DNA from: Desulfobacteraceae bacterium
GTDB lineage: Bacteria; Desulfobacterota; DSM-4660; Desulfatiglandales; HGW-15
Assembly (NCBI GenBank): GCA_050115555.1
Contig: JASFQI010000001.1
Span: forward strand, 1-51,046
Direction of reading: 5' to 3'
DNA: 51,046 nt
Positions 2,183 through 12,090 of the stretch are shown here, in pieces (positions within the stretch are counted from its first letter, which is position 1; each line of letters begins with the position of its first letter). The translations under genes and the position numbers were made by a program. The notes beneath the pieces were generated by a model that was not told the origin of the DNA, ran no database searches, and worked only from the letters and a program-made list of their open reading frames with translations.

Positions 2183-2299
2183 TAGAATTCCTCTCAAATG
2201 TGATGGAGTCGCAAAAAACCTTGGACCAAACGATGACCCTTTGCACATCAAAAAACATCAGTGTAGCTCACAAAAGTCGAAGAGATTTTTACGATACCG

Positions 2300-3016
2300 T
2301 CAAAAAAATTGTTTATTGAAGCGGGTAAATGACACTTCAAGTCGGGCATATAGAGATCGAAGCCGTTCATTGGCCACAACGATTTTTTCGTTTTTCTGTT
2401 CATTCTCCTGATCTAATGGATAGCAGGAAAGGCACATTTCATAATTCTTGATTTGATTGTCATAATGAACAGCGAAATTGACCATGAGAAATACCATTTT
2501 CACTTCAAAATTAGGCAGTTGTTCTCTTGCATGAACCCATTGAAGCCAGGGTTCAATCGATATTCCACCCCTATCCTTGGCCAGAGCGATGGTATCCTCC
2601 ATCCTCATCGCGCCTTGGTCGAGTGCGCGATTTTCAATCTTTTTCGCATAGCTTTCCAATGTCAGCTTCGGTCTTTCCAGGAGGATCCCGGCGCGGCGAA
2701 GCTTCTCCAAATCTGATTTCATGTACTGATTGGCGGTCAGGATCGCCTTGTAGGTCGCAGGACAATGCCCGTCAGGGCACCCACGCGCATAGCATTTCCT
2801 GAATCCGTATTCCTCTCCATCGATGGTTCCACTGAAACGGCACAGAAACATCAGGGCCCTATAGGCCGGATCATCTTCCGTGAAGTACATGGGAATGACG
2901 TCGAACGTGGCGCGACAAAAGACGCGGGAGGACCGTAGCTTCCACTGCAGCAGGTCGCTGATGCGGCTCGGAGGGCGGATACCCGCGGTTTCACTCTTTC
3001 CCATTGAAGTCGCCAT
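2300..3016 (-). CDS. Uncharacterised Cys-rich protein, paralog 1 of a tandem pair
   Basis: 238-aa ORF. Shares RFSGxIDGxxxxFRKCYARGCPxxxCP and CLxCYP with the neighbouring ORF 3035-3754. I recognise no family. The gene is noticeably AT-rich (46/120 G+C by hand count over 2301-2420). Confidence 0.75.
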   Translation of the reverse strand: MATSMGKSETAGIRPPSRISDLLQWKLRSSRVFCRATFDVIPMYFTEDDPAYRALMFLCRFSGTIDGEEYGFRKCYARGCPDGHCPATYKAILTANQYMKSDLEKLRRAGILLERPKLTLESYAKKIENRALDQGAMRMEDTIALAKDRGGISIEPWLQWVHAREQLPNFEVKMVFLMVNFAVHYDNQIKNYEMCLSCYPLDQENEQKNEKIVVANERLRSLYARLEVSFTRFNKQFF

Positions 3017-3034
3017 AACGAGACCATCCTGACA

Positions 3035-3754
3035 TCAGGAGTGAAAAAAGGTCTTTTCATGCGGAATCGAAGCATGATCGAAGGCCTCGTAGACTCGTGC
3101 CAGCCGCGCATTTGCAATGTCGATTTTGTTCGATCGCTCTTCCCGTTCGTTTTCATGGGGATAACAGGCCAGGCATCGCTCCATGTGATGGGGTTTTCCG
3201 AGATGTGTGATCGAAAAGTCGGCCATCAGAAACATCTGCGCCTTCTGGTAGTTTGCAAAATGCTCAACCCCGGGGACAAACTCGAGTTTGACTTCAACGA
3301 TCCCAGCGTTTCCCTCTCGAGCGAGGTTGACGGCGTCGTCGATCGTCATCGTGGCTTCGTTGTCCTCATGAACGTCCTCGTACTTGACCATCATGTCTTC
3401 CAGGGTAAACAACCGCTTGTCGATATCGATTCCACTCTCTTCCAGGCGTCGATAATCCCGCTGGAGATAACGGTTGGCGATCATGACCGCCTGAGAGACA
3501 TGCGGACACAAATTGTTCGGGCAGCCGCGTGCATAGCATTTTCGAAACTCGAAATCCTGCCCGTCGATGTCCCCGGAGAACCGAACGAGGAAAATATGGG
3601 CCTGGAACGGATTTTTTCGATCCACAAAATCCACCGGAAGGATCTCGAATGCGACCCGGCAGTGCACCGTTGAACCGTCTTTTTTCAATGCGATCAAGTC
3701 GGTCACACGGCAGGGTGGAAATCCATTCATTTGCTGCTGCATGGCGAGCCTCAT
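3035..3754 (-). CDS. Uncharacterised Cys-rich protein, paralog 2 of a tandem pair
   Basis: 239-aa ORF lying 18 nt upstream of paralog 1. About one third of residues are identical along the whole length, with six conserved Cys. A GGTGAGGGGA-type SD precedes the ATG at 3754. Confidence 0.8.
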   Translation of the reverse strand: MRLAMQQQMNGFPPCRVTDLIALKKDGSTVHCRVAFEILPVDFVDRKNPFQAHIFLVRFSGDIDGQDFEFRKCYARGCPNNLCPHVSQAVMIANRYLQRDYRRLEESGIDIDKRLFTLEDMMVKYEDVHEDNEATMTIDDAVNLAREGNAGIVEVKLEFVPGVEHFANYQKAQMFLMADFSITHLGKPHHMERCLACYPHENEREERSNKIDIANARLARVYEAFDHASIPHEKTFFHS

Positions 3755-3771
3755 TTTCGTTATCCCCTCAC

Positions 3772-4146
3772 CTAAAACACAAACACGGCGTCGGATTCGA
3801 TCGCCTCCAGGTTCACGGAACCGGCCGCCGTCACCTCGGAACCTTCGATCAGCTCGGACTCCGGGAGATCGCGGCTCTTGATGCAGGGACCGCAGACCCA
3901 GATCTTTCCGCCTTCCTCGAGAAATGTGTGGAGGAGCTCCTTCATGGGAGGAAACCCTCCGCCCGGGGGCATGGTTTCAGCATACCCCTTTTTGGCGATG
4001 TACACCCCGTCCCCCTGGAGGACAATGGTGGCCTTTATGTCCATGGCAAGGGCCGCATTGGCAAGGGCGAACGGGATGTGGGCCATTTCCGATCTGTTCT
4101 CGCCACAGGTGCACATGTAAAGAATCTTGTCTTGCTTCTCCGTCAT
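3772..4146 (-). CDS. DsrE/TusD-family sulfur-relay-like protein
   Basis: ORF trimmed to the ATG at 4146 (MTEKQDKILYMCTCG), preceded by GGAGAAGGAGA. Shows the DsrE-like pattern (ATIVLQGDGVYIA .. KIWVCGPCIKSRD) at ~124 aa. Confidence 0.7.
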   Translation of the reverse strand: MTEKQDKILYMCTCGENRSEMAHIPFALANAALAMDIKATIVLQGDGVYIAKKGYAETMPPGGGFPPMKELLHTFLEEGGKIWVCGPCIKSRDLPESELIEGSEVTAAGSVNLEAIESDAVFVF

Positions 4147-4271
4147 CTTTCGTTCTCCTTCTCCTCTGGGTTCTAGATCATGAATCCTCATACAGTTCAG
4201 TTGAAATCGGGGTGATAAATACGCAAGTTACGTATCTTTATGAAACGGCTTGCGTTCTTTCACCCTCGCTT

Positions 4272-5201
4272 CTATTCCACCTGACGGGCAATCACGGTGG
4301 AAAGATCTTCCACGTCTGCCCCGGCCTTCCTGAGGTTGCCCAGGCAAATGGGACACATGGCCACGATGGGCGCATGGGCGCTCTCCAGGTCCTCGAGCCG
4401 GCGCCCTACGACCTCCTGGGACAGCCTGGGAGAGATGGACTCCGCCGGTCCTCCGCAGCAGTGGGTGTAGGCCCCGGAGTCGCGGACCGGCACACACTCA
4501 ATGTCCAGGCCGGAGAGGACCTGATAGGGGACGTCTGAGAGCTCCAGGTATCGCCCGTAGAAGCAGGGGTCGTGGAGGACGATCCTCCGGTGGCCGTTGT
4601 GCGATTGAAGGTCCAGCAGCTCGAAGTAGGCGTGGACCTCGAAGCTTTCCCCGGTGACCTTGGGGTAAAGCACCTTCAGGGCATAGGTGGTGTGGGGATC
4701 CACGGTGATGAGTTTGCGGACGCCTTTCTCCCTCAGTTTTGCTGCCACATATTTCGCCTGCTCGACGAACCCTTCCTGATCGCCCAGGTCGTAGAGCAGG
4801 ACACCGCTGTAATCATCCAGCTTCGGGTCGTAAAAGAAATCCACGCCGGAGCGGGTCAGGATCATCGCGATATTCTGTAAAATCCGGTTGAATTTTTCCT
4901 TCTCCTTCCCGGGTGTGATCGCGGCCAGGCCGAGCCCCGACACCCATTTGGGCACGTATTTTCCGTAGCCCATGTAGTCGGCCCACTTCGTGTCTTCGAA
5001 GCGCTCCAGATACGCAGTGGATTTCTCGATGTAGGGAATGAACTGATACATCAAACCGGTAAACAGGAGGGCATCCCCTTTTCTGCCTACCTCGGCCTTT
5101 TTCCACCAGCTGTTGACGGCGAACTTGGGAATCCCAAAAGGATTCTTGGTTTTTTTGACATTGTCGGCAATCAGATCGATGATCATCCTGGGATCATACA
5201 T
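4272..5201 (-). CDS. hdrB: HdrB-like CCG-domain protein (only one intact CCG motif)
   Basis: ATG at 5201 lies one nt after the hdrC-like stop and is preceded by GGAGGAGG. The C-terminal half carries C-X34-CC-X33-CxxC (DPCFYG..THCCGGP..MCPICLG). The N-terminal ~215 aa contain no Cys. Confidence 0.8.
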   Translation of the reverse strand: MYDPRMIIDLIADNVKKTKNPFGIPKFAVNSWWKKAEVGRKGDALLFTGLMYQFIPYIEKSTAYLERFEDTKWADYMGYGKYVPKWVSGLGLAAITPGKEKEKFNRILQNIAMILTRSGVDFFYDPKLDDYSGVLLYDLGDQEGFVEQAKYVAAKLREKGVRKLITVDPHTTYALKVLYPKVTGESFEVHAYFELLDLQSHNGHRRIVLHDPCFYGRYLELSDVPYQVLSGLDIECVPVRDSGAYTHCCGGPAESISPRLSQEVVGRRLEDLESAHAPIVAMCPICLGNLRKAGADVEDLSTVIARQVE

Positions 5202-5202
5202 G

Positions 5203-5505
5203 TCAGGACCTCCTCCAGTTCGAGACCACAAAGCGTTTCAATCCCAGGATCACTTCTCCGGGATTCGCCTCCCGCGGACAGGTCTGTGTGCAGAGACCGC
5301 AGTGAAGGCAACGCCAGAGCTCCCGGGCGTTGTCCAGGATGCGATCCCTGGCCCCGAGCTGGATGTAGCGGATCATCCGCCGTGGAAAATGCTCGTAGAT
5401 CAAGGGGCAGATCGCTGCGCAGGTCCCGCAGTTGAAGCACTCCAGCGCCGTACCGCTTCCGTAGCTTGCGATTTCTTCGGCAAAGTCCAGGTTCACTTGT
5501 GCCAT
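5203..5505 (-). CDS. hdrC: HdrC-like 2x[4Fe-4S] ferredoxin subunit
   Basis: Trimmed to the ATG at 5505 (MAQVNLDF), preceded by GGGAGGA. Two cluster motifs are present: CFNCGTCAAICP and CLHCGLCTQTCP. Confidence 0.8.
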   Translation of the reverse strand: MAQVNLDFAEEIASYGSGTALECFNCGTCAAICPLIYEHFPRRMIRYIQLGARDRILDNARELWRCLHCGLCTQTCPREANPGEVILGLKRFVVSNWRRS

Positions 5506-5569
5506 GTTTTTCCTCCCAGGAATGCGTCGGGTTCCCCGATGCCTCCCTTTCCTTTCGCACAGGTCGAAA

Positions 5570-5890
5570 TCAATCCGTCGCTTCCGCGGCCTTCTCTTCG
5601 GCCAGTTCATACATGAAGTATGCGCCGTCCTTTTCCGCTTCCCTGACCTCGCCGTATTTCTTCAGGGTCGCCACATACCAGAGGACCTCTGCGGTCTCGG
5701 CCCCGATGGCCGATGCGATCGCAGGAACGGTCTGCGGGCCGTTCTTCAGATGATCCCGAATGGCCCGGGTTTTCTTTTTCTGCTCCCGCATCCTGCTCGT
5801 GGCCTCTTCGATCCATGCCTTTCGGCTTTCACGAAGCGTTTTCAAGGCCTCTTTGTCGAAACCCACCTGCTTCCCTTGTTTCCGGCTCAT
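5570..5890 (-). CDS. Small basic protein with a winged-helix-like C-terminus (the 'hyp' of the hdr cluster)
   Basis: Trimmed to the ATG at 5890 (MSRKQGKQVGF), preceded by GAGGTG. The C-terminal TVPAIASAIGAETAEVLWYVATLKKYGEVRE looks like a wHTH. Family not recognised. Confidence 0.55.
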   Translation of the reverse strand: MSRKQGKQVGFDKEALKTLRESRKAWIEEATSRMREQKKKTRAIRDHLKNGPQTVPAIASAIGAETAEVLWYVATLKKYGEVREAEKDGAYFMYELAEEKAAEATD

Positions 5891-5951
5891 GCTTTCACCT
5901 CGTCCGTGCAGCGCGTTTCCGGCCCGTCCTCTCTTTCGGCGTTCCTCTCGA

Positions 5952-7862
5952 TCAAGCCGCCTCATCCGCGGCTACAATTCGATCCACCATGGCGTCATAC
6001 TGCTCGAGGGTCCAGCCGTTGATGTCAATAGCGTTTTCAGGACACACGGCAACGCAGGCCCCGCAACCGGTGCAGAGCGCCGGCGTGACCTCGGCACGGC
6101 GCACGGTCTTCCCTTCCACTTGTTCCTCCACCATTCTCAAGGCGCCGTCTACAAGGCAGGCCTCCACGCAAGCACCTGACCCCTTGCACCTCGCGGGGTC
6201 CACTTGGGCCACGAACGGGTCAAGCTCCACGTACCCCCGCCCGAGCAGGGCCGCTGCCTTGGCCGCGGCCGCGCCGGCCGCATTGCACACCTCCCCCACG
6301 TCCATCGGGGCCTGGCATGTCCCTGCCAGCAGCAGACCGGTCTGAGGCAGTTCCACGGGCCTGAGCTTCGGATGGACCTCGAGCAGAAACCGGTCCATGC
6401 CGACCGGCAGCTTCATCATCTCTACCAGCTCCGAAATGCCGGTCGGTTCCATTCCCGTTGCCAGGACAACCAGGTCCGCGGGTACCTCCACCTCTTCACC
6501 GAAGGTCAGCGTATCCCTGACCTTGACTCGCAGGGGATAGTCTTCGGATTCCTCGCCCTGCAGGACCTCGGGCGCATCCTCGGCCTCGAAGCGCAGGAAG
6601 ACGACGCCGCTTTTGGCTGTGTCGTTGTAAAGCTCCTCCTGCCCGCGGCCGTAGGTCCGGATGTCCCGGTAGAACTCGTAGACGTGGGTCCCGGGATGGG
6701 ATATTCGGATCCTGTGGGCCGCGTCCAGGCTGGCCGTGCAGCAGGTACGGGAGCAGTACTCGTTCAGGTGCCCGGTCTCGTCGTCCGGGTGAATGCCGGG
6801 AATCTGACGGCTCCCGACACAGTGGATCATGGCTATGCTCCGGATCTTCCGGCCGTTGACGATCAGGCAATCGCCGTCCGAGGCTTCGGCCAGGATCCGG
6901 ATCAGATCGCTCAGCGTGACCACCTCCGCGAACTCCCCGTATCCGTACTCTCCCCGGCGCGGCACGTAGGGCCGGAAGCCCGTGGCCAGCACCACCACGC
7001 CCGTCTCGAGGCTCAGGGTTTCAGCGGCTTCCGGGATCGGCTGGGGGCACACGCCTGAAAAAGGTACGTACGCGTTTCGGGCGCCGCTGCCGGGATCAAC
7101 CGGTTCCATGCCGATCCGGGGAGGTTCTGTTTTCAGGCCGAGCCTGAAGTTCCCCACATACCCCTCGAAGGACGCTACAGAGGAGCAGGTGTGAACCGTG
7201 ATGTTCGGATCCTCCAGGACTTCTCCGGCCAGCTCCTTCACCAGGTCCTCAGCCCGGTCTCCAGTGGGCGCCACTCGGTCCAATTCTGCCACCCGCCCTC
7301 CGAGAAACGGGGTCTTTTCGATCAGGGCCACTTCGATCCCGCGCCCGGCCAGGTCCTTTGCCGCCCGGAGACCTGCGATGCCACCCCCGATGACGGTCGC
7401 GTGGGGCCGGGCATCGACCCGGATCGGTTCCAGGGGTTCGAGTCTCTCGGCCTTGGCCGCGGCGGCCGCCACCAGCCGGGTGGCCTTGTTTGTGGCCTCC
7501 TCCCCGTGATGGACCCAGCTGACCTGCTCTCTGATGTTGGCATGGTCGTAGATATAGGGGTTTGCTCCGGCTCGTGCCAGGGCGCTTCGAAACGTGTTCT
7601 CATGGAGGCTGGGAGCGCAGGAGGCGACCACGATTCGGTTCACGGCACCGCTTTTCAGGTCCTCCATGATCATCTCCTGACCTGGGTCCGAGCACATGAA
7701 CATGTTGGTACGCGCCACGGAGACCCCAGGGAGGTGTTCCACCCGGTCCCGGACCGTCTCCACTTCCACGTGATCCGAGATGTTTCCGCCGCAGTAGCAG
7801 ATGTAGACGCCCACCTTTGCCTGCGTGGGTTCAGCGTTTTTGTTCTTTTTCTCTTCGGTCAT
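5952..7862 (-). CDS. hdrA: HdrA-type flavoprotein with an N-terminal MvhD-like domain and C-terminal 2x[4Fe-4S] domain
   Basis: ATG at 7862 (MTEEKKNK), preceded by AGGAGA. The N-terminus (VYICYCGGNISDHV..MFMCSDPG..VVASCAPS) resembles MvhD/FlpD. It is followed by VIGGGIAGLRAAKDLA (FAD binding), HCVGSR..EYCSRTCC (the HdrA signature), and CKGSGACVEAC plus CTGCGACVAVCP at the C-terminus. Confidence 0.9.
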   Translation of the reverse strand: MTEEKKNKNAEPTQAKVGVYICYCGGNISDHVEVETVRDRVEHLPGVSVARTNMFMCSDPGQEMIMEDLKSGAVNRIVVASCAPSLHENTFRSALARAGANPYIYDHANIREQVSWVHHGEEATNKATRLVAAAAAKAERLEPLEPIRVDARPHATVIGGGIAGLRAAKDLAGRGIEVALIEKTPFLGGRVAELDRVAPTGDRAEDLVKELAGEVLEDPNITVHTCSSVASFEGYVGNFRLGLKTEPPRIGMEPVDPGSGARNAYVPFSGVCPQPIPEAAETLSLETGVVVLATGFRPYVPRRGEYGYGEFAEVVTLSDLIRILAEASDGDCLIVNGRKIRSIAMIHCVGSRQIPGIHPDDETGHLNEYCSRTCCTASLDAAHRIRISHPGTHVYEFYRDIRTYGRGQEELYNDTAKSGVVFLRFEAEDAPEVLQGEESEDYPLRVKVRDTLTFGEEVEVPADLVVLATGMEPTGISELVEMMKLPVGMDRFLLEVHPKLRPVELPQTGLLLAGTCQAPMDVGEVCNAAGAAAAKAAALLGRGYVELDPFVAQVDPARCKGSGACVEACLVDGALRMVEEQVEGKTVRRAEVTPALCTGCGACVAVCPENAIDINGWTLEQYDAMVDRIVAADEAA

Positions 7863-7907
7863 TCCGGATTCTCCTGCCAACGGGTTCCGCAATCCCACGG
7901 GAGGGGT

Positions 7908-9245
7908 TCAGGCTTGAACGGCCCGAGCCGCCTCTCTCTCCTTGTCGAGACCGTTCGTGCAATCCAGGCGCGCAAGGTACTTGGCCGCCTCCACGGACGC
8001 CGCACCGGACTCGGCGATGGTGTCCACGATGTCCTTGGGGCCGGCCGCCGTTCCCGCGACGAAAACCCCTTCCATATCGGTTCGCGTCGGGGAAAGTTTG
8101 GGCTGTATCGTTCGAATAAACCGGTCCGGCCCTGAGGAGACCTCGCAGATCCCTTCGGGGTTCCAGGCCGGAACCATCCCCAGGGACAGCACCACCAGGT
8201 CGTGATCCGCCGTAGACACCCCTTCACCGTTCTGATCCTCGTAGCGAAGGGTGACAGACCCGTTTTCCCCTTCATGGATAGAAGCGACCTTGCCCTTGAC
8301 GAACTCGATGCCCATGGCCTTGGCATTCTGGTAGAACTGCTCGTACCCTTTTCCAAAAGCGCGGATGTCCATGTAGTAAATGGTAATGTCCGCCAGGGGC
8401 AGCGAGCCGGAGATGAGCATGGCCTGCTTGATAGCATACATGCAGCAGACTCTGGAGCAGTAGGAGACCCCCATGCTCTTGTCCCGCGATCCGGCGCACT
8501 GGACATAGGCGATGGAATCCGGCTCCATGCCGTCCGACGGCCTGAGGACGCGGTTGTAAGGGCCGTGAGGGGCCAGGAGCCTCTCCATCTGCATGGACGT
8601 GATCACATTGGGGATACGGCCGTTACCGTACTGCTGCTTGGTTTCTATCGGCGTCAGCTCGAAGCCGGTGGCCAGGACCGCTGTTTTTGCCCGAATGAGA
8701 ACCTCCTCCGGCTTTTGAAAGTAATCCACGGCATGGGTGGGGCAGACCGTGGCGCACTTTCCACACAGCATGCAGTTTTCCGCATCCAGCACGGCGATCT
8801 GAGGGATGGCGTTGGAAAAGGGAATGGAAATGGCCTTGGTCGCAGAAAAGCCTCCCTGCTCCTCATCGGGCACGTAGACCGGGCAGGCGTACTCGCACTG
8901 CCTGCATCCGATACACTTGTCTGGATCGACATACCGCGGACGTTGCGTCACTGACGCGATAACCCGGTCTTCGCGGCGGTCGAGGGACGTCACGTCACAA
9001 TTGGTAAACAGGTTGATCTTCTCGTGATGGGCCGCAGCCGCCATCTTTGGCGTCGTGATGCAGCTGGCACAGTCGAGGGTCGGAAAGACCTTGGACAGGC
9101 GGATCATTTTTCCACCAATGGATGCATCCCGTTCCACAACCGCCACATGGAACCCCTGATCTGCCAGATCCAGGGCCGACTGGAGGCCTGCAATCCCACC
9201 GCCAACCACCAACGCGTCAAACTCGAGCTTTCGTATGGAGTCCAT
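7908..9245 (-). CDS. Second HdrA-family flavoprotein (core type with inserted ferredoxin domain)
   Basis: VVGGGIAGLQSALDLA, LDCASCITTPK, CIGCRQCEYACP, CMLCGKCATVCP, CAGSRD..YCSRVCC. 445 aa. Confidence 0.9.
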   Translation of the reverse strand: MDSIRKLEFDALVVGGGIAGLQSALDLADQGFHVAVVERDASIGGKMIRLSKVFPTLDCASCITTPKMAAAAHHEKINLFTNCDVTSLDRREDRVIASVTQRPRYVDPDKCIGCRQCEYACPVYVPDEEQGGFSATKAISIPFSNAIPQIAVLDAENCMLCGKCATVCPTHAVDYFQKPEEVLIRAKTAVLATGFELTPIETKQQYGNGRIPNVITSMQMERLLAPHGPYNRVLRPSDGMEPDSIAYVQCAGSRDKSMGVSYCSRVCCMYAIKQAMLISGSLPLADITIYYMDIRAFGKGYEQFYQNAKAMGIEFVKGKVASIHEGENGSVTLRYEDQNGEGVSTADHDLVVLSLGMVPAWNPEGICEVSSGPDRFIRTIQPKLSPTRTDMEGVFVAGTAAGPKDIVDTIAESGAASVEAAKYLARLDCTNGLDKEREAARAVQA

Positions 9246-9427: not shown

Positions 9428-9853
9428 TCAGTTCCGGGAAACCTCCGGCGGTCCCAGCTCCTGAACCAGCTCGTTCATCTGGTTCACCTCATTCAAGAAT
9501 GCGCGGTTGCATACCGTGCATATGGCGGTCAGCCGCAGCCTGCGAATGTCCAGGTCGTGCTCCTTCATAAGCTTGTAGACTCGGTCTATCCGTTTGGCGA
9601 GAGCCTTGTAGGCTCCGTCATACGGGCATTCTTCCCCGCAGGACATGACGATCATGCCGCTGATTCCCTTCTTGAAACAGTCCAGGTAGAACCGTTCCGG
9701 AAAGAGGACCGGAGCCCGCACCCGAAGAATGTAGGTGTTCGTGGGGTAGGTCGAATGCGCCTGCCCCACAGAGTCCGCACCGGGATAGGCACAGCTTTCG
9801 GTAGACAGAATCAGTATTTTCCCTTTATCAAGGCCTGATTGAGTGCTTTCCAT
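9428..9853 (-). CDS. mvhD: MvhD/FlpD-type (methyl-viologen-reducing hydrogenase delta subunit-like) protein
   Basis: 141 aa. ILILSTESCAYPGADS .. GMIVMSCGEECPYDGAYK .. AICTVCN is typical of MvhD, the usual electron-transfer partner of HdrA. Confidence 0.85.
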   Translation of the reverse strand: MESTQSGLDKGKILILSTESCAYPGADSVGQAHSTYPTNTYILRVRAPVLFPERFYLDCFKKGISGMIVMSCGEECPYDGAYKALAKRIDRVYKLMKEHDLDIRRLRLTAICTVCNRAFLNEVNQMNELVQELGPPEVSRN

Positions 9854-9864
9854 GGTGCTTCCAC

Positions 9865-10377
9865 CTACTTCTTTCTCCTGACAAAGTGTTTGTCGTATCC
9901 ATCGGCTTCCAGGGCACCCAGGTACTCGTGTCCGACCTTGTTGGCCCAGGCCGGAATGTCCCTTCGAGTTCCGGAGTCATTGGAGTAGACCTCCAGGACT
10001 TCACCCACTTTGACTTTTCCGATGCCTTTTTTGGCCTCCAAAAGCGGCCCCGGGCAGGCACTGCCTCGGGCATCCACGGTACTTGCAGTTTGAACAGTAC
10101 TCAGATCTTCGGGCATTTTTTTCTCCTCTGTACGTGTGAAAGGTTCTTGTTTGCTCTTCTTCAACTGCATTCGATATCCATCTTCTTCGTTTCCAATCTT
10201 TTCGATGATCAGGACTTCATAAGTCCCCTTAGGAAGGACTTTTAATAAGTCCTCGTGCATGTCTGGATCGATCCATTCAACTTCGATGGTTTCTCCAAGC
10301 GCCATCTCTTTGAAGATATTGCTGATACGCAAGAGAGAAAACGGGATGATGGTGTGTCTCAAGTCGAAAGAATGCAT
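9865..10377 (-). CDS. Tandem TusA/SirA-like protein (N-terminal domain degenerate, C-terminal domain has the CPxP Cys)
   Basis: The C-terminal half (DARGSACPGPLLEAKKGIGKVKVGEVLEVYSNDSGTRRDIPAWANKVGHEY) is a canonical TusA. The N-terminal half has the same fold pattern without the Cys. The start is uncertain: ATG at 10377 or TTG at 10389. Confidence 0.7.
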   Translation of the reverse strand: MHSFDLRHTIIPFSLLRISNIFKEMALGETIEVEWIDPDMHEDLLKVLPKGTYEVLIIEKIGNEEDGYRMQLKKSKQEPFTRTEEKKMPEDLSTVQTASTVDARGSACPGPLLEAKKGIGKVKVGEVLEVYSNDSGTRRDIPAWANKVGHEYLGALEADGYDKHFVRRKK

Positions 10378-10437
10378 AGATAGTCTCAAAACTGCTTGGA
10401 AAGAGTTGAATGAGCGATTCCACGGCTTCCCCCTTGA

Positions 10438-10452
10438 GCAAATAGAGTGCCA
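10438..10452 (-). promoter_or_regulatory. Sigma-54 (-24/-12) promoter of the hdr/metVF locus
   Basis: The reverse strand reads cTTGGCACtctatTTGCTc, matching the YTGGCACG-N4-TTGCW consensus with correct spacing. It lies ~60 nt upstream of the first gene and next to a divergent sigma-54 activator gene. Confidence 0.75.
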
Positions 10453-10680
10453 AGCCTTGTCTTCGGAATCGGGATGCCCGCGGGCAAGAAGACCAAAATC
10501 TTATCAACTTGCTGAAAAAGTGGAATATTTTTGGAGACGAGAATGTGCCCGTTGGCCTTGTTTTTGGATATTTCCGTGGTATGGAGGTCGATTTCTAGGT
10601 CCGGAGGCTTGCCAAGAGCCTGTTTAGATGTTAAGAACATGAACGCTTTGTTTGTTCACTTGTTAAACAGGAGCGTTCAC

Positions 10681-12090
10681 ATGCGCGATACAGACTATGA
10701 ACTGAGGCATCATCTGAACCACTACTGGAAAACCGTAGTCGATACCATCCAGGACGGCGTGATGATCGTGAACACGGACGGGACCATTGTCTCTGCCAAC
10801 CGAGGGTTTGAGGAGATTACCGGGTACTCCCACGAGGAGCTCATCGGCCAGCCGTGTGCCTTGCTGTCCTGCTCCACATGCGAGTTCGCCCTGGAGGCGG
10901 AAGGCAGCTTCTGTATCCTGTTTCAACAGGGGACCCTGCGCCAGCAGCGGTGCGAACTGCGCCAAAAGAACGGCGACATGGTACATGTCGTAAAGAACGC
11001 CTCGGTCCTCAAGGATCAGAACGGCAAGGTCATCGGGGCGGTGGAAACCGTGACGGATGTGACCGACCTGATTGACAAGGAAAGGCAGATCGAGACCTAC
11101 CGGCGGGAGCTGGACCAGAAGGACCGGTTCCACGGGATGATCGGGACCTCCGCGAGGATGCAGCAGGTCTTCTACCTGATTGCCAATGCGGCCAAGTCCG
11201 ATGCCCCGGTGATCGTCCACGGTGAAAGCGGCACTGGAAAGGAACTGGTGGCCAAGGCCATCCACGAGTCCAGCCACCGAAAGGAAAAACCCTTCATCAA
11301 GGTCAACTGCGCAGCCCTCAATGAATCGCTCCTGGAAAGCGAGCTCTTCGGTCACGTGAAAGGGGCCTACACTGGGGCTCACCGGGACCGGGAAGGTCGT
11401 TTCGAGGCGGCCGAAGGCGGGAACATCTTCCTGGACGAGATCGGGGACCTGCCCCTGGCCACGCAGGTCAAGCTTTTGAGAGTCCTGGAGGAGAAAGTCA
11501 TCGAGCGGGTGGGGGATCATCAGCCTGTCCACGTGGATGTGCGGATCATTTCCGCCACCAACCGGGACCTTCCAAAGTTGATCGATACGGGGGCGTTCAG
11601 GGAGGACTTTTTTTACCGGATCAATGTCATTCCCATCTGGGTTCCGCCATTACGGGAGCGGGCCGAGGATATCCCTTTGCTGGCCATGTCATTTTTTCGC
11701 TTGATTCGGCTTCAAAGCGGCAAGGACATCGAGGGCGTTTCCAGGGAGGCCATGGATGCGCTGGTGAAGTACCCCTGGCCCGGCAATGTCCGGGAACTGA
11801 GGAGCGCCTTTGAGTTCGCCTTTGTCTCCTGCCAGGATCGAATGATCGGGATCGAGCACCTGCCCCACCCGATTGCCCGGAACACCACGGAGCCCCCTCC
11901 TTCGGAGAGCGCTCCGGCCGGCATCGAAGAGCTGAAGAAGGAGCGCCTGCTCAAGGCCCTGGAGGCCTCCGGGGGCAACCAGTCCAAGGCGGCCCGGATC
12001 CTTGGCATCTCCCGTACCAGTGTCTGGAGCCAGATGAAGCGGTTTCACATCAAAGCGCCCCACGCCGGATCGAAAATGTCTTTTCCTTGA
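10681..12090 (+). CDS. Sigma-54-dependent transcriptional activator (PAS - AAA+ - Fis-type HTH)
   Basis: ORF trimmed to the ATG at 10681, preceded by AGGAG. Motifs: PAS ([34 protein letters not shown]), Walker A (GESGTGKE), a GAFTGA variant (GAYTGA), [10 protein letters not shown], and a C-terminal [19 protein letters not shown]. Confidence 0.9.

Follow-up and report, generated by a model that had tools for sequence, protein, structure and literature searches.

A tandem pair of unannotated, cysteine-containing genes linked to Hdr, DsrE and TusA genes in a Desulfobacteraceae bacterium

Introduction

What do two adjacent, unannotated genes encoding cysteine-rich proteins contribute to an operon that encodes Hdr-type redox proteins and sulfur carriers? 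This question is raised by a 51,046-nucleotide stretch of DNA from a Desulfobacteraceae bacterium (GenBank assembly GCA_050115555.1, contig JASFQI010000001.1, positions 1 to 51,046; hereafter, the window), in which a tandem pair of related open reading frames (ORFs) lies between genes for a DsrE-like protein and for MetV. In an earlier reading of the sequence (hereafter, the original prediction), the two were proposed as candidate novel subunits or assembly factors of a redox operon. They are here given the names ParA (paralog 2 of that prediction) and ParB (its paralog 1), labels coined in the present analysis.

In the energy conservation of anaerobes, a central place is taken by flavin-based electron-bifurcating complexes of the Hdr type. 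To our knowledge, no physiological thiol/disulfide partner has been assigned to complexes of the MetFV-Hdr type or to the many HdrA paralogues of complete-oxidizing sulfate reducers. As detailed below, ParA and ParB are real, expressed and conserved cytoplasmic two-module proteins, tightly linked to DsrE, TusA and Hdr genes, and represent a previously undescribed protein family that carries no annotation. Par is probably a working part of the Hdr/DsrE redox and sulfur-relay machinery in sulfate-reducing Desulfobacterales.

ParA and ParB are related members of an undescribed family

ParA is encoded on the reverse strand at positions 3035–3754, comprises 239 residues when read from the first ATG and belongs to the main clade of the unnamed Par family. 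ParB follows on the same strand at positions 2300–3016, comprises 238 residues and belongs to a fast-evolving "second-copy" clade. The stop codon of ParA and the ATG of ParB are separated by 18 nucleotides, and plausible Shine-Dalgarno sequences are found at both starts, that of ParA (GAGGGG) lying 9–10 nucleotides ahead of the ATG at position 3754. Database homologues of ParA begin at Met5 (position 3742), not at the first ATG. When compared by BLASTP, the two proteins share 36% identity over 225 residues with a single gap (E 5e-57), a similarity far beyond chance. The arrangement originally described, namely adjacent ORFs 18 nucleotides apart that are about one third identical, was thus recovered, as were both of the conserved blocks that had been quoted (RFSGxIDGxxxxFRKCYARGCPxxxCP and CLxCYP) and the flanking genes, a DsrE-like gene (PF02635) on one side and MetV (PF12225) on the other.

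The original prediction could not assign the pair to any family, and this held true in each of the collections searched. ParA, ParB and all 38 aligned relatives were without a match in Pfam, nothing was found for ParA or ParB in NCBIfam, PHROGs or PADLOC, and a profile compared to all Protein Data Bank (PDB) sequences yielded only a chance match to FliT (E 0.15). The fold search that had been proposed as a check likewise revealed no characterized family, with Foldseek searches of the whole AlphaFold2 (AF2) model against the PDB and BFVD, and of a single module against the PDB, giving nothing at E <= 1e-3. Weak matches to the human cytomegalovirus UL130 subunit, uS5, BamC and SecB, none of which reached that threshold, were considered as noise, with TM values for all Foldseek matches not exceeding about 0.4. 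Full-text literature searches that included motif strings returned no description of the family, and the Desulfococcus multivorans and Desulfobacterium autotrophicum genome papers treat Hdr loci without mention of a par gene.

Several families to which cysteine-containing proteins in such a setting might belong were considered individually. No match to the HdrB/CCG family (PF02754) was found at E <= 1 in the 38 Par members. The CCG motif, C-x31-39-C-C-x35-36-C-x2-C, binds a non-cubane [4Fe-4S] cluster; the conserved Par set is without a Cys-Cys dipeptide and shares with CCG only the number of cysteines (five) and a terminal CxxC. For the DsrE/DsrF/DsrH family (PF02635), no Pfam match was obtained, and the order of elements predicted for Par is helix, three strands, helix, twice over. 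The Fer4 clan also gave no match, and the CxxCxxCxxxCP motif is absent from the sequence. Finally, Par did not match DsrC/TusE (PF04358) in Pfam, and the Par cysteines are internal.

Relatives of ParA fall into 1055 clusters (E <= 1e-3, clustering at 90% identity), all of which are unnamed or "hypothetical" and whose named sources are Desulfobacterales or "Deltaproteobacteria". Given that an exhaustive hidden Markov model scan of 1.84 billion representatives at 50% identity returned only 118 proteins, the family is compact. Among 401 genomes drawn evenly from the phylum, seven (that of the window included) encode a Cys-type Par protein, and 15 more encode distant relatives only. These distant relatives are two-module or single-module (~110–125 residue) proteins that retain the module signature [KR]-x-Y..G ... 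IAN-x-RL..DY-x-RL..AGI without cysteines at the Par positions. Because the cysteines are missing in relatives found outside Hdr contexts, the cysteine set must have been acquired in the clade that joined Hdr and DsrE. The Cys-less relatives occupy unrelated gene neighbourhoods, which were accordingly dropped as a clue to function. At three loci of this sort (L084, L085 and L086, in genomes G105, G384 and G031, respectively), a Cys-less two-module relative adjoins, in a non-Hdr context, a gene whose product, in our reading of its N-terminal sequence, starts like the tau/gamma subunit of DNA polymerase III (dnaX).

Par genes accompany Hdr and DsrE genes rather than metVF

To describe the surroundings of Par genes, the proteins of the window operon were compared by tblastn with 80 genome loci, including loci from Desulfosarcina variabilis, Desulfococcaceae, Desulfatirhabdiaceae and Desulfatiglandales; the denominators that follow are loci with enough flanking sequence. 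A DsrE-like gene lies immediately upstream of Par in 62 of 75 loci, HdrC and/or HdrB are encoded no more than 3 kb upstream in 60 of 66, and HdrA1 is upstream in 49 of 54. The window presents the same placement, in that the par genes come directly after the dsrE-like gene and behind an hdrA-hdrA-x-hdrC(-hdrB) array. By contrast, metV is immediately downstream of Par in just 20 of 63 loci. It follows that the association is with Hdr and DsrE and not with MetVF. The idea of Par as a specific partner of MetVF was therefore rejected, with MetVF being an optional downstream partner of the Hdr module. As such, to the question of whether homologues are always next to hdr and metVF, the answer is almost always for hdr and dsrE, and in about one third of loci for metVF. 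The description of the pair as candidate novel subunits or accessory factors of a redox operon is fair, given a large unannotated family that is tightly syntenic with such an operon. An association with the DsrE and TusA sulfur relay rather than with MetVF also alters how "Wood-Ljungdahl-linked Hdr" operons are read.

These counts bear on the possibility that Par is an iron-sulfur adaptor for electron transfer, connecting the Hdr module, at its HdrC/HdrB end, with MetVF or another oxidoreductase. Such a function would suit the position of Par between hdrB-dsrE and metVF in the window and in about one third of the loci, a setting in which all of the neighbouring subunits are Fe-S proteins, and Cys-Pro pairs, such as C78-P and C83-P of ParA, are common at Fe-S ligands. 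Still, metV is not downstream in 43 of 63 loci, Par offers neither a ferredoxin-type motif nor a Fer4 match, and MetV and HdrC already hold clusters for the task. An adaptor of this kind is accordingly considered quite unlikely.

At loci lacking metVF, the genes downstream of Par presumably encode HdrA-like, DsrE-like, DrsE_2-like and TusA-like proteins, a peroxiredoxin and a pyridine-nucleotide disulfide reductase-like protein, these being names given upon reading the sequences, with only the similarities to DsrE and HdrA2 of the window having been checked by tblastn. Moreover, Par proteins of a third clade are encoded directly upstream of a different HdrA-like gene, the product of which is ~31% identical to HdrA2 (loci L013, L025, L037, L042, L043, L047 and L048). 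This suggests that a second Par-linked Hdr-like module exists. In several loci (e.g., L043 and L048), a 559-residue FAD/Fe-S protein is encoded after the third-clade Par and HdrA-like genes.

Two modules and a conserved set of cysteines

The AF2 model of ParA (pLDDT 84.8, pTM 0.80) presents the order helix-strand-strand-strand-helix, a linker, and the same order again. Module 1 (residues 9–122; positions 3389–3730, reverse strand) is modelled as a helix, three long antiparallel strands and a long helix, and reached a pLDDT of 89.6 when the N-terminal module was folded alone. Module 2 (residues 128–239; positions 3038–3373, reverse strand) is an internal repeat of module 1 according to both AF2 and HHalign, the latter aligning the two over 104 columns (probability 95.3%, E 2.4e-8) and placing C73 opposite C194. 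Since the two halves align, each Par protein is the product of an internal duplication, and the gene pair comprises four modules; the repeated unit is predicted from sequence comparison and modelling to be an alpha-beta3-alpha module of ~115 residues. Two tandem modules of this length in a protein of ~235 residues are thus found in ParA, and ParB aligns with ParA along its full length.

ParA and ParB have six cysteines in common (C32, C73, C78, C83, C194 and C197 in ParA numbering), as originally claimed. When conservation was counted over 95 family members, the set proved to be five near-invariant cysteines, namely C73, C78 and C197 (each 95/95), C194 (94/95) and C83 (93/95), together with a mostly conserved histidine, H85 (86/95); C32 (88/95) and C57 (80/95) are also less conserved. 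R71, K72, Y74, R76 and G77 are essentially invariant. The cysteines are laid out as C-x4-C-x4-C, usually followed by x-H, in module 1 and as a CxxC at the pseudo-symmetric place in module 2. In ParA, the first of these is R71-K-C73-Y-A-R-G-C78-P-N-N-L-C83-P-H85 (positions 3500–3544, reverse strand), where strand 3 meets helix 2 in the model, and the second is R193-C194-L-A-C197-Y198 (positions 3161–3178, reverse strand), at the end of strand 3'. In ParB, the corresponding stretches, located by sequence comparison, are R73-K-C75-Y-A-R-G-C80-P-D-G-H-C85-P-A87 (positions 2756–2800, reverse strand), with alanine where ParA has histidine, and M194-C195-L-S-C198-Y-P200 (positions 2417–2437, reverse strand). 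Both proteins therefore contain F-R-K-C-Y-A-R-G-C ... C in module 1 and C-x-x-C-[YF] in module 2, with all five cysteines in place. Two arrangements of a putative site can be envisaged. The four strictly invariant cysteines (C73, C78, C194 and C197) would favour, at the level of sequence, a Cys4 site between the modules, and a local knuckle, with the CxxC left free, is favoured by the way in which the C-x4-C-x4-C-x-H run leads into a helix.

Either arrangement could serve a purely structural end. Par might be a zinc-stabilized scaffold or assembly factor in which C73/C78/C194/C197 or C73/C78/C83/H85 clamp the modules and help to assemble or dock the Hdr/DsrE complex, without redox or sulfur chemistry. 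In addition to four strictly invariant cysteines drawn from both modules, such a scaffold would account for a C-x4-C-x4-C-x-H run that starts a helix, as seen at zinc sites of the SWIM or treble-clef type, for the folding of the Cys-less relatives without metal and for Par evolving faster than the catalytic subunits (see below). At the same time, the near-invariant cysteines number five, not four, and no Pfam zinc-finger match was obtained. The gain of the cysteines in the clade linked to Hdr and DsrE, beside a DsrE protein with a CxPC motif, further argues for chemistry over mere stability. Comparison with the SWIM finger (CxCxnCxH; PF04434) is instructive in this respect. Both have a Cys/Cys ... 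Cys-x-His arrangement in which the last pair opens a helix (C73, C78 and C83-P-H85 in ParA), but the Par spacing is C-x4-C-x4-C-x-H, PF04434 was matched by none of the 38 members, the histidine is missing in 9 of 95 members, the ParB clade among them, and two more invariant cysteines are found in module 2. The scaffold is thus an unlikely explanation.

The module topology also brings to mind a nucleic acid-binding or regulatory protein, with a fold like that of the double-stranded RNA-binding domain (dsRBD) and a SWIM-like Cys/His knuckle, that controls the operon or its mRNA. The alpha-beta3-alpha order is that of dsRBDs, uS5 and dsRBD chains were among the weak Foldseek matches, and the invariant basic residues R71, K72 and R76, as well as R193, flank the cysteines. 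Nonetheless, a Par module spans ~115 residues as compared to ~70 in a dsRBD, with strands (12–16 residues) and a helix that are far longer, and the best matches of dsRBD or uS5 type had TM values of 0.24–0.40 and probabilities of 0.16–0.41, none being significant at E <= 1e-3. Moreover, the operon is already served by a dedicated sigma-54 activator, and the depth at which par is covered by metatranscriptome contigs, itself a poor measure of expression, equals that of the adjacent enzyme genes. Regulation of this kind is hence regarded as highly improbable.

A proposed role for Par

We infer, with moderate confidence, that Par is an accessory protein with a cysteine or metal centre that acts together with DsrE and Hdr in a thiol or persulfide relay. 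Where the two modules meet, the cysteines would make up a metal or iron-sulfur centre, a redox-active dithiol, or both. Par would cooperate with the product of the adjacent DsrE-like gene (positions 3772–4191, reverse strand; PF02635, E 8.7e-19), which lies immediately upstream of ParA and itself bears a Cys-x-Pro-Cys motif. Among the DsrE-like orthologues, C100 (ORF numbering) is invariant (66/66), C103 is found in 61 of 66, and the same number present C-[GV]-P-C (CxPC), with thioredoxin-like spacing. Serving as carrier or adaptor, Par could then deliver a persulfide or disulfide in protein-bound form to the electron-bifurcating HdrA module, at its HdrC/HdrB end, or collect one there.

Comparison with known systems points to Par being an undescribed accessory component of a familiar kind of system, that is, Hdr-type bifurcating complexes that operate with a TusA/DsrE sulfur relay. 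A first system for comparison is the MetFV-HdrABC-MvhD complex of Moorella thermoacetica and other acetogens, a type III MTHFR that has also been discussed for sulfate reducers (PMC10553843). As in that complex, hdrA, hdrB, hdrC, mvhD, metV and metF are found together in the window operon; unlike that complex, the window includes two HdrA genes and an HdrB with one detectable CCG domain, and Par tracks Hdr and DsrE even where metVF is not present. The acetogen MetFV-Hdr operon is not known to contain a TusA, DsrE or Par gene, and no second electron acceptor is known for the complex.

The sulfur-oxidizing sHdr system relies on a relay of TusA, DsrE3 and the lipoate-binding protein LbpA (Tanabe et al., 2024, cited in PMC13293266). 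The window resembles this system in its hdrA-small gene-hdrC-hdrB order, in the presence of tusA and a dsrE-type gene, and in the principle of feeding an HdrB-type site from a protein-bound carrier of sulfur or dithiols. It differs in that the operon showed neither LbpA nor a further hdrC/hdrB pair, the hosts are sulfate reducers, and Par is without sequence or fold similarity to LbpA, TusA or DsrE. A functional analogy may also be drawn to DsrC/TusE, small cytoplasmic proteins with a conserved cysteine pair on which, as a thiol/disulfide (trisulfide) substrate, the HdrB-like CCG proteins of sulfate reducers act. Here again, Par differs in lacking a sequence match, in its predicted fold and in its internal cysteines, those of DsrC being on a C-terminal arm. 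Lastly, the conserved hypothetical proteins of the YTD cluster (yedE-tusA-dsrE-chp), which are currently interpreted as DsrEFH type II (PMC13293266, PMC12998232), are comparable to Par in having been unannotated neighbours of tusA and dsrE in Desulfobacterota, with their role in sulfur transfer having come from structure prediction. The YTD proteins adopt the DsrE fold, whereas Par is predicted to be of alpha-beta3-alpha type without a PF02635 match, and YedE was not seen among its neighbours.

A bolder and unlikely version of the relay would cast Par as the protein-bound redox partner that MetFV/Hdr-type complexes of sulfate reducers are missing, its five-cysteine centre, on a fold not seen before, either carrying a disulfide or persulfide to be reduced by a half-site HdrB with one CCG domain or providing such an HdrB with the second cluster or thiol site absent from it. 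If so, methyl-tetrahydrofolate oxidation and flavin-based bifurcation would be linked through Par to the sulfur relay of TusA and DsrE, and ParA-ParB heteromers would be proteinaceous carriers of a new class, based on dithiols or Fe-S, in the role of DsrC or lipoate-binding proteins.

Several observations weigh against a role for Par in the relay. No Hdr gene is found nearby in six of the 66 loci with enough flank, and 14 loci present a tblastn match to HdrC but none to the HdrB of the window. One of these, L027, was inspected. At positions 6258–7391 of that locus, a fusion joins HdrC (2x[4Fe-4S]) to a hydrophobic domain at its C-terminus in which about six membrane segments are apparent; no HdrB ORF comes after it, yet DsrE and Par are retained. 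These loci indicate that HdrB is not an obligate partner of Par. Furthermore, Par evolves quickly. Locus L096 (GCA_963986805.1) carries the same operon, including ParA-ParB-metV-metF, and there ParA and ParB are only 67% and 56% identical, respectively, to the window proteins, as compared to 82–92% for the Hdr, DsrE and Met proteins, a rate more in keeping with an adaptor or scaffold than with a catalytic centre. Finally, relative to the near-identical strain L097, ParB has accumulated five nonsynonymous and no synonymous changes (ParA has none), as compared to 4:16 for the other genes taken together; when set against the four genes other than HdrB (1:6), the ParB ratio differs with p = 0.015 by Fisher's test. 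Such strain-level changes are compatible with relaxed constraint. The HdrB-less pattern, as judged by tblastn alone, recurs in 13 loci besides L027 (e.g., L029, L046, L049 and L064).

With these points considered, Par still stands as a concrete new candidate component of Hdr systems, being widespread, transcribed in situ, unannotated, rich in conserved cysteines and syntenic in abundant sediment Desulfobacterales. It moreover adds a fold without a detectable PDB match and a family absent from Pfam and NCBIfam.

Transcription of the par operon

Transcription of the pair was considered in metatranscriptomes assembled in Logan, the contigs of which are strandless and offer only a flat depth that is a poor measure of expression. 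In a wetland metatranscriptome (X2), contigs identical to the window were found over positions 1593–2726 and 2724–8313, and a third contig (8316–10416) differed from it by one substitution and one single-nucleotide gap. As such, both paralogs and the whole operon are covered, contrary to the lack of expression that would have refuted the original prediction. Three other metatranscriptomes contributed short contigs within ParB (2345–2586) and ParA (3414–3599). The X2 contigs have depths of 13, 15 and 37; in the same run, positions 12.5–20.5 kb of the window are mostly at 0 (below 1). This uneven coverage argues for RNA, with some DNA carry-over possible. Carry-over as the source of the signal is unlikely, since the next 20 kb are covered patchily and often not at all. 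Judging from these strandless contigs, the par genes are co-transcribed with the operon that runs from tusA to metVF. A transcript boundary at the contig junction (2724–2726) was also considered and rejected, as the junction coincides with strain-variable positions (2726 and 2737).

Apart from the par genes, depth rises sharply at positions 1401–1750, reaching 80x in X2 and 35x in X8, as compared to ~13x around it, near the spacer between metV and metF (about 1278–1466), and many metatranscriptome contigs run into unrelated sequence at positions 1425–1467. The spacer thus behaves like a repeated element that is present at other sites or in other organisms.

ParB, a diverged second copy

A tandem pair is not typical of the family, as might have been supposed from the window; 74 of the 80 loci contain a single copy, two contain two and four contain three. 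In a maximum-likelihood tree, ParB falls in a clade (support 100/98) with the orthologues P0121 and P0122 and the middle copies of L013, L021, L025 and L018, the first three of these being three-copy loci and the last having a shorter third copy. The third copies form a separate clade (100/100), joined by the stand-alone genes that lie beside the different HdrA-like gene. The longest branches of the tree are those of the ParB clade, and such long branches could inflate the grouping. All eight members of the clade have lost His85, which is replaced by alanine or asparagine, and retain the five cysteines; ParB itself keeps these and the FRKCYARxC core and evolves fast outside that conserved core. 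ParB is a diverged second copy that probably pairs with ParA.

The AT-richness of ParB had been taken to hint at a different history. Both the tree and the conserved ParA-ParB-metV order in L096 rule out a recent or foreign insertion, given that ParB belongs to an old clade and that its AT-rich 3' end recurs in L096. The early emphasis on metVF and on a foreign origin of the AT-rich copy is hence not supported by synteny, by the tree or by gene order in L096.

Some of the same traits could nonetheless be expected were ParB a decaying duplicate, heading for loss and without a function of its own. The excess of nonsynonymous changes over those in neighbouring genes (5:0 vs. 4:16), the longest branches, the atypical codon composition at the 3' end and the loss of His85 all agree with decay. 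Against this, the reading frame remains unbroken both in three genomes or strains and in four middle copies that are more distant, the five cysteines and the FRKCYARxC core have been retained at an overall identity of only 40–56%, the clade is old, and ParB is covered by metatranscriptome contigs and so transcribed. Decay is therefore deemed improbable.

The operon and the AT-rich end of ParB

The gene order in the window is tusA-mvhD-hdrA2-hdrA1-x-hdrC-hdrB-dsrE-parA-parB-metVF, under the control of a predicted sigma-54 promoter. All of these genes are on the reverse strand, as is the promoter sequence itself, a perfect match to the sigma-54 consensus (TGGCACTCTATTTGCT; positions 10437–10452) that lies upstream of tusA and is the only zero-mismatch match in the window. 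A gene with PAS, sigma-54-activator and HTH_8 domains in Pfam (positions 10531–12090, forward strand) is divergent from this promoter, and in L096, too, this activator lies beside the operon. The operon opens with a TusA-domain gene (9865–10389; PF01206) and MvhD/FlpD (9428–9853; PF02662), after which come two flavoproteins with Pfam FAD/Pyr_redox and Fer4 matches, HdrA2 (7908–9245) and HdrA1 (5952–7898). In the slot between hdrA and hdrC, a small protein conserved by synteny is encoded (5570–5965), which would comprise ~106 residues from an internal start, equal to the 106 residues of its L096 orthologue, and which has a weak ArsR-type helix-turn-helix match. It is followed by an HdrC-like 2x[4Fe-4S] ferredoxin subunit with Fer4 family matches (5203–5610) and an HdrB-like subunit (4272–5231; PF02754), the single detectable CCG domain of which spans residues 218–301. 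The N-terminal ~215 residues of this HdrB-like subunit are without cysteine. Downstream of ParB are metV (1463–2251; PF12225), with a likely start at 2182, and metF (296–1297; PF02219).

At the head of the operon, the X2 contig is one base short relative to the window at position 10388, at the annotated TTG start of the 174-residue TusA ORF. In L096, two separate small genes, encoding a 76-residue protein and then an 83-residue TusA, are found in its place. The 174-residue ORF may therefore be artificial, owing either to the start chosen or to an indel in the assembly.

The AT-richness originally noted in ParB was borne out in that positions 2301–2420 contain 46 G+C in 120 nucleotides, but the dip is confined to a tract (positions 2183–2539, reverse strand) comprising the last ~80 ParB codons, where G+C content at third codon positions (GC3) is 0.33–0.35, and the 117-nucleotide spacer between ParB and metV (GC 0.40). 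GC3 in the neighbouring genes is 0.70–0.78. In the L096 orthologue (tract 9480–9828), GC3 falls from 0.65–0.78 to 0.45, 0.15 and 0.07 across the last ~95 codons, within an operon at 0.7–0.85; no such gradient in the gene was found in low-GC genomes. In GC-rich genomes in which metV comes after ParB, the AT-rich end is thus a conserved feature. An internal sigma-54 promoter in this end was sought and dismissed, there being no match to the consensus. The spacer contains a weak terminator-like hairpin (2239–2223) and a weak sigma-70-like match. Our guess would be that the AT-rich end is a signal, at the level of DNA or RNA, for metVF expression. Six of the 34 strain-level differences are located in the 117-nucleotide spacer.

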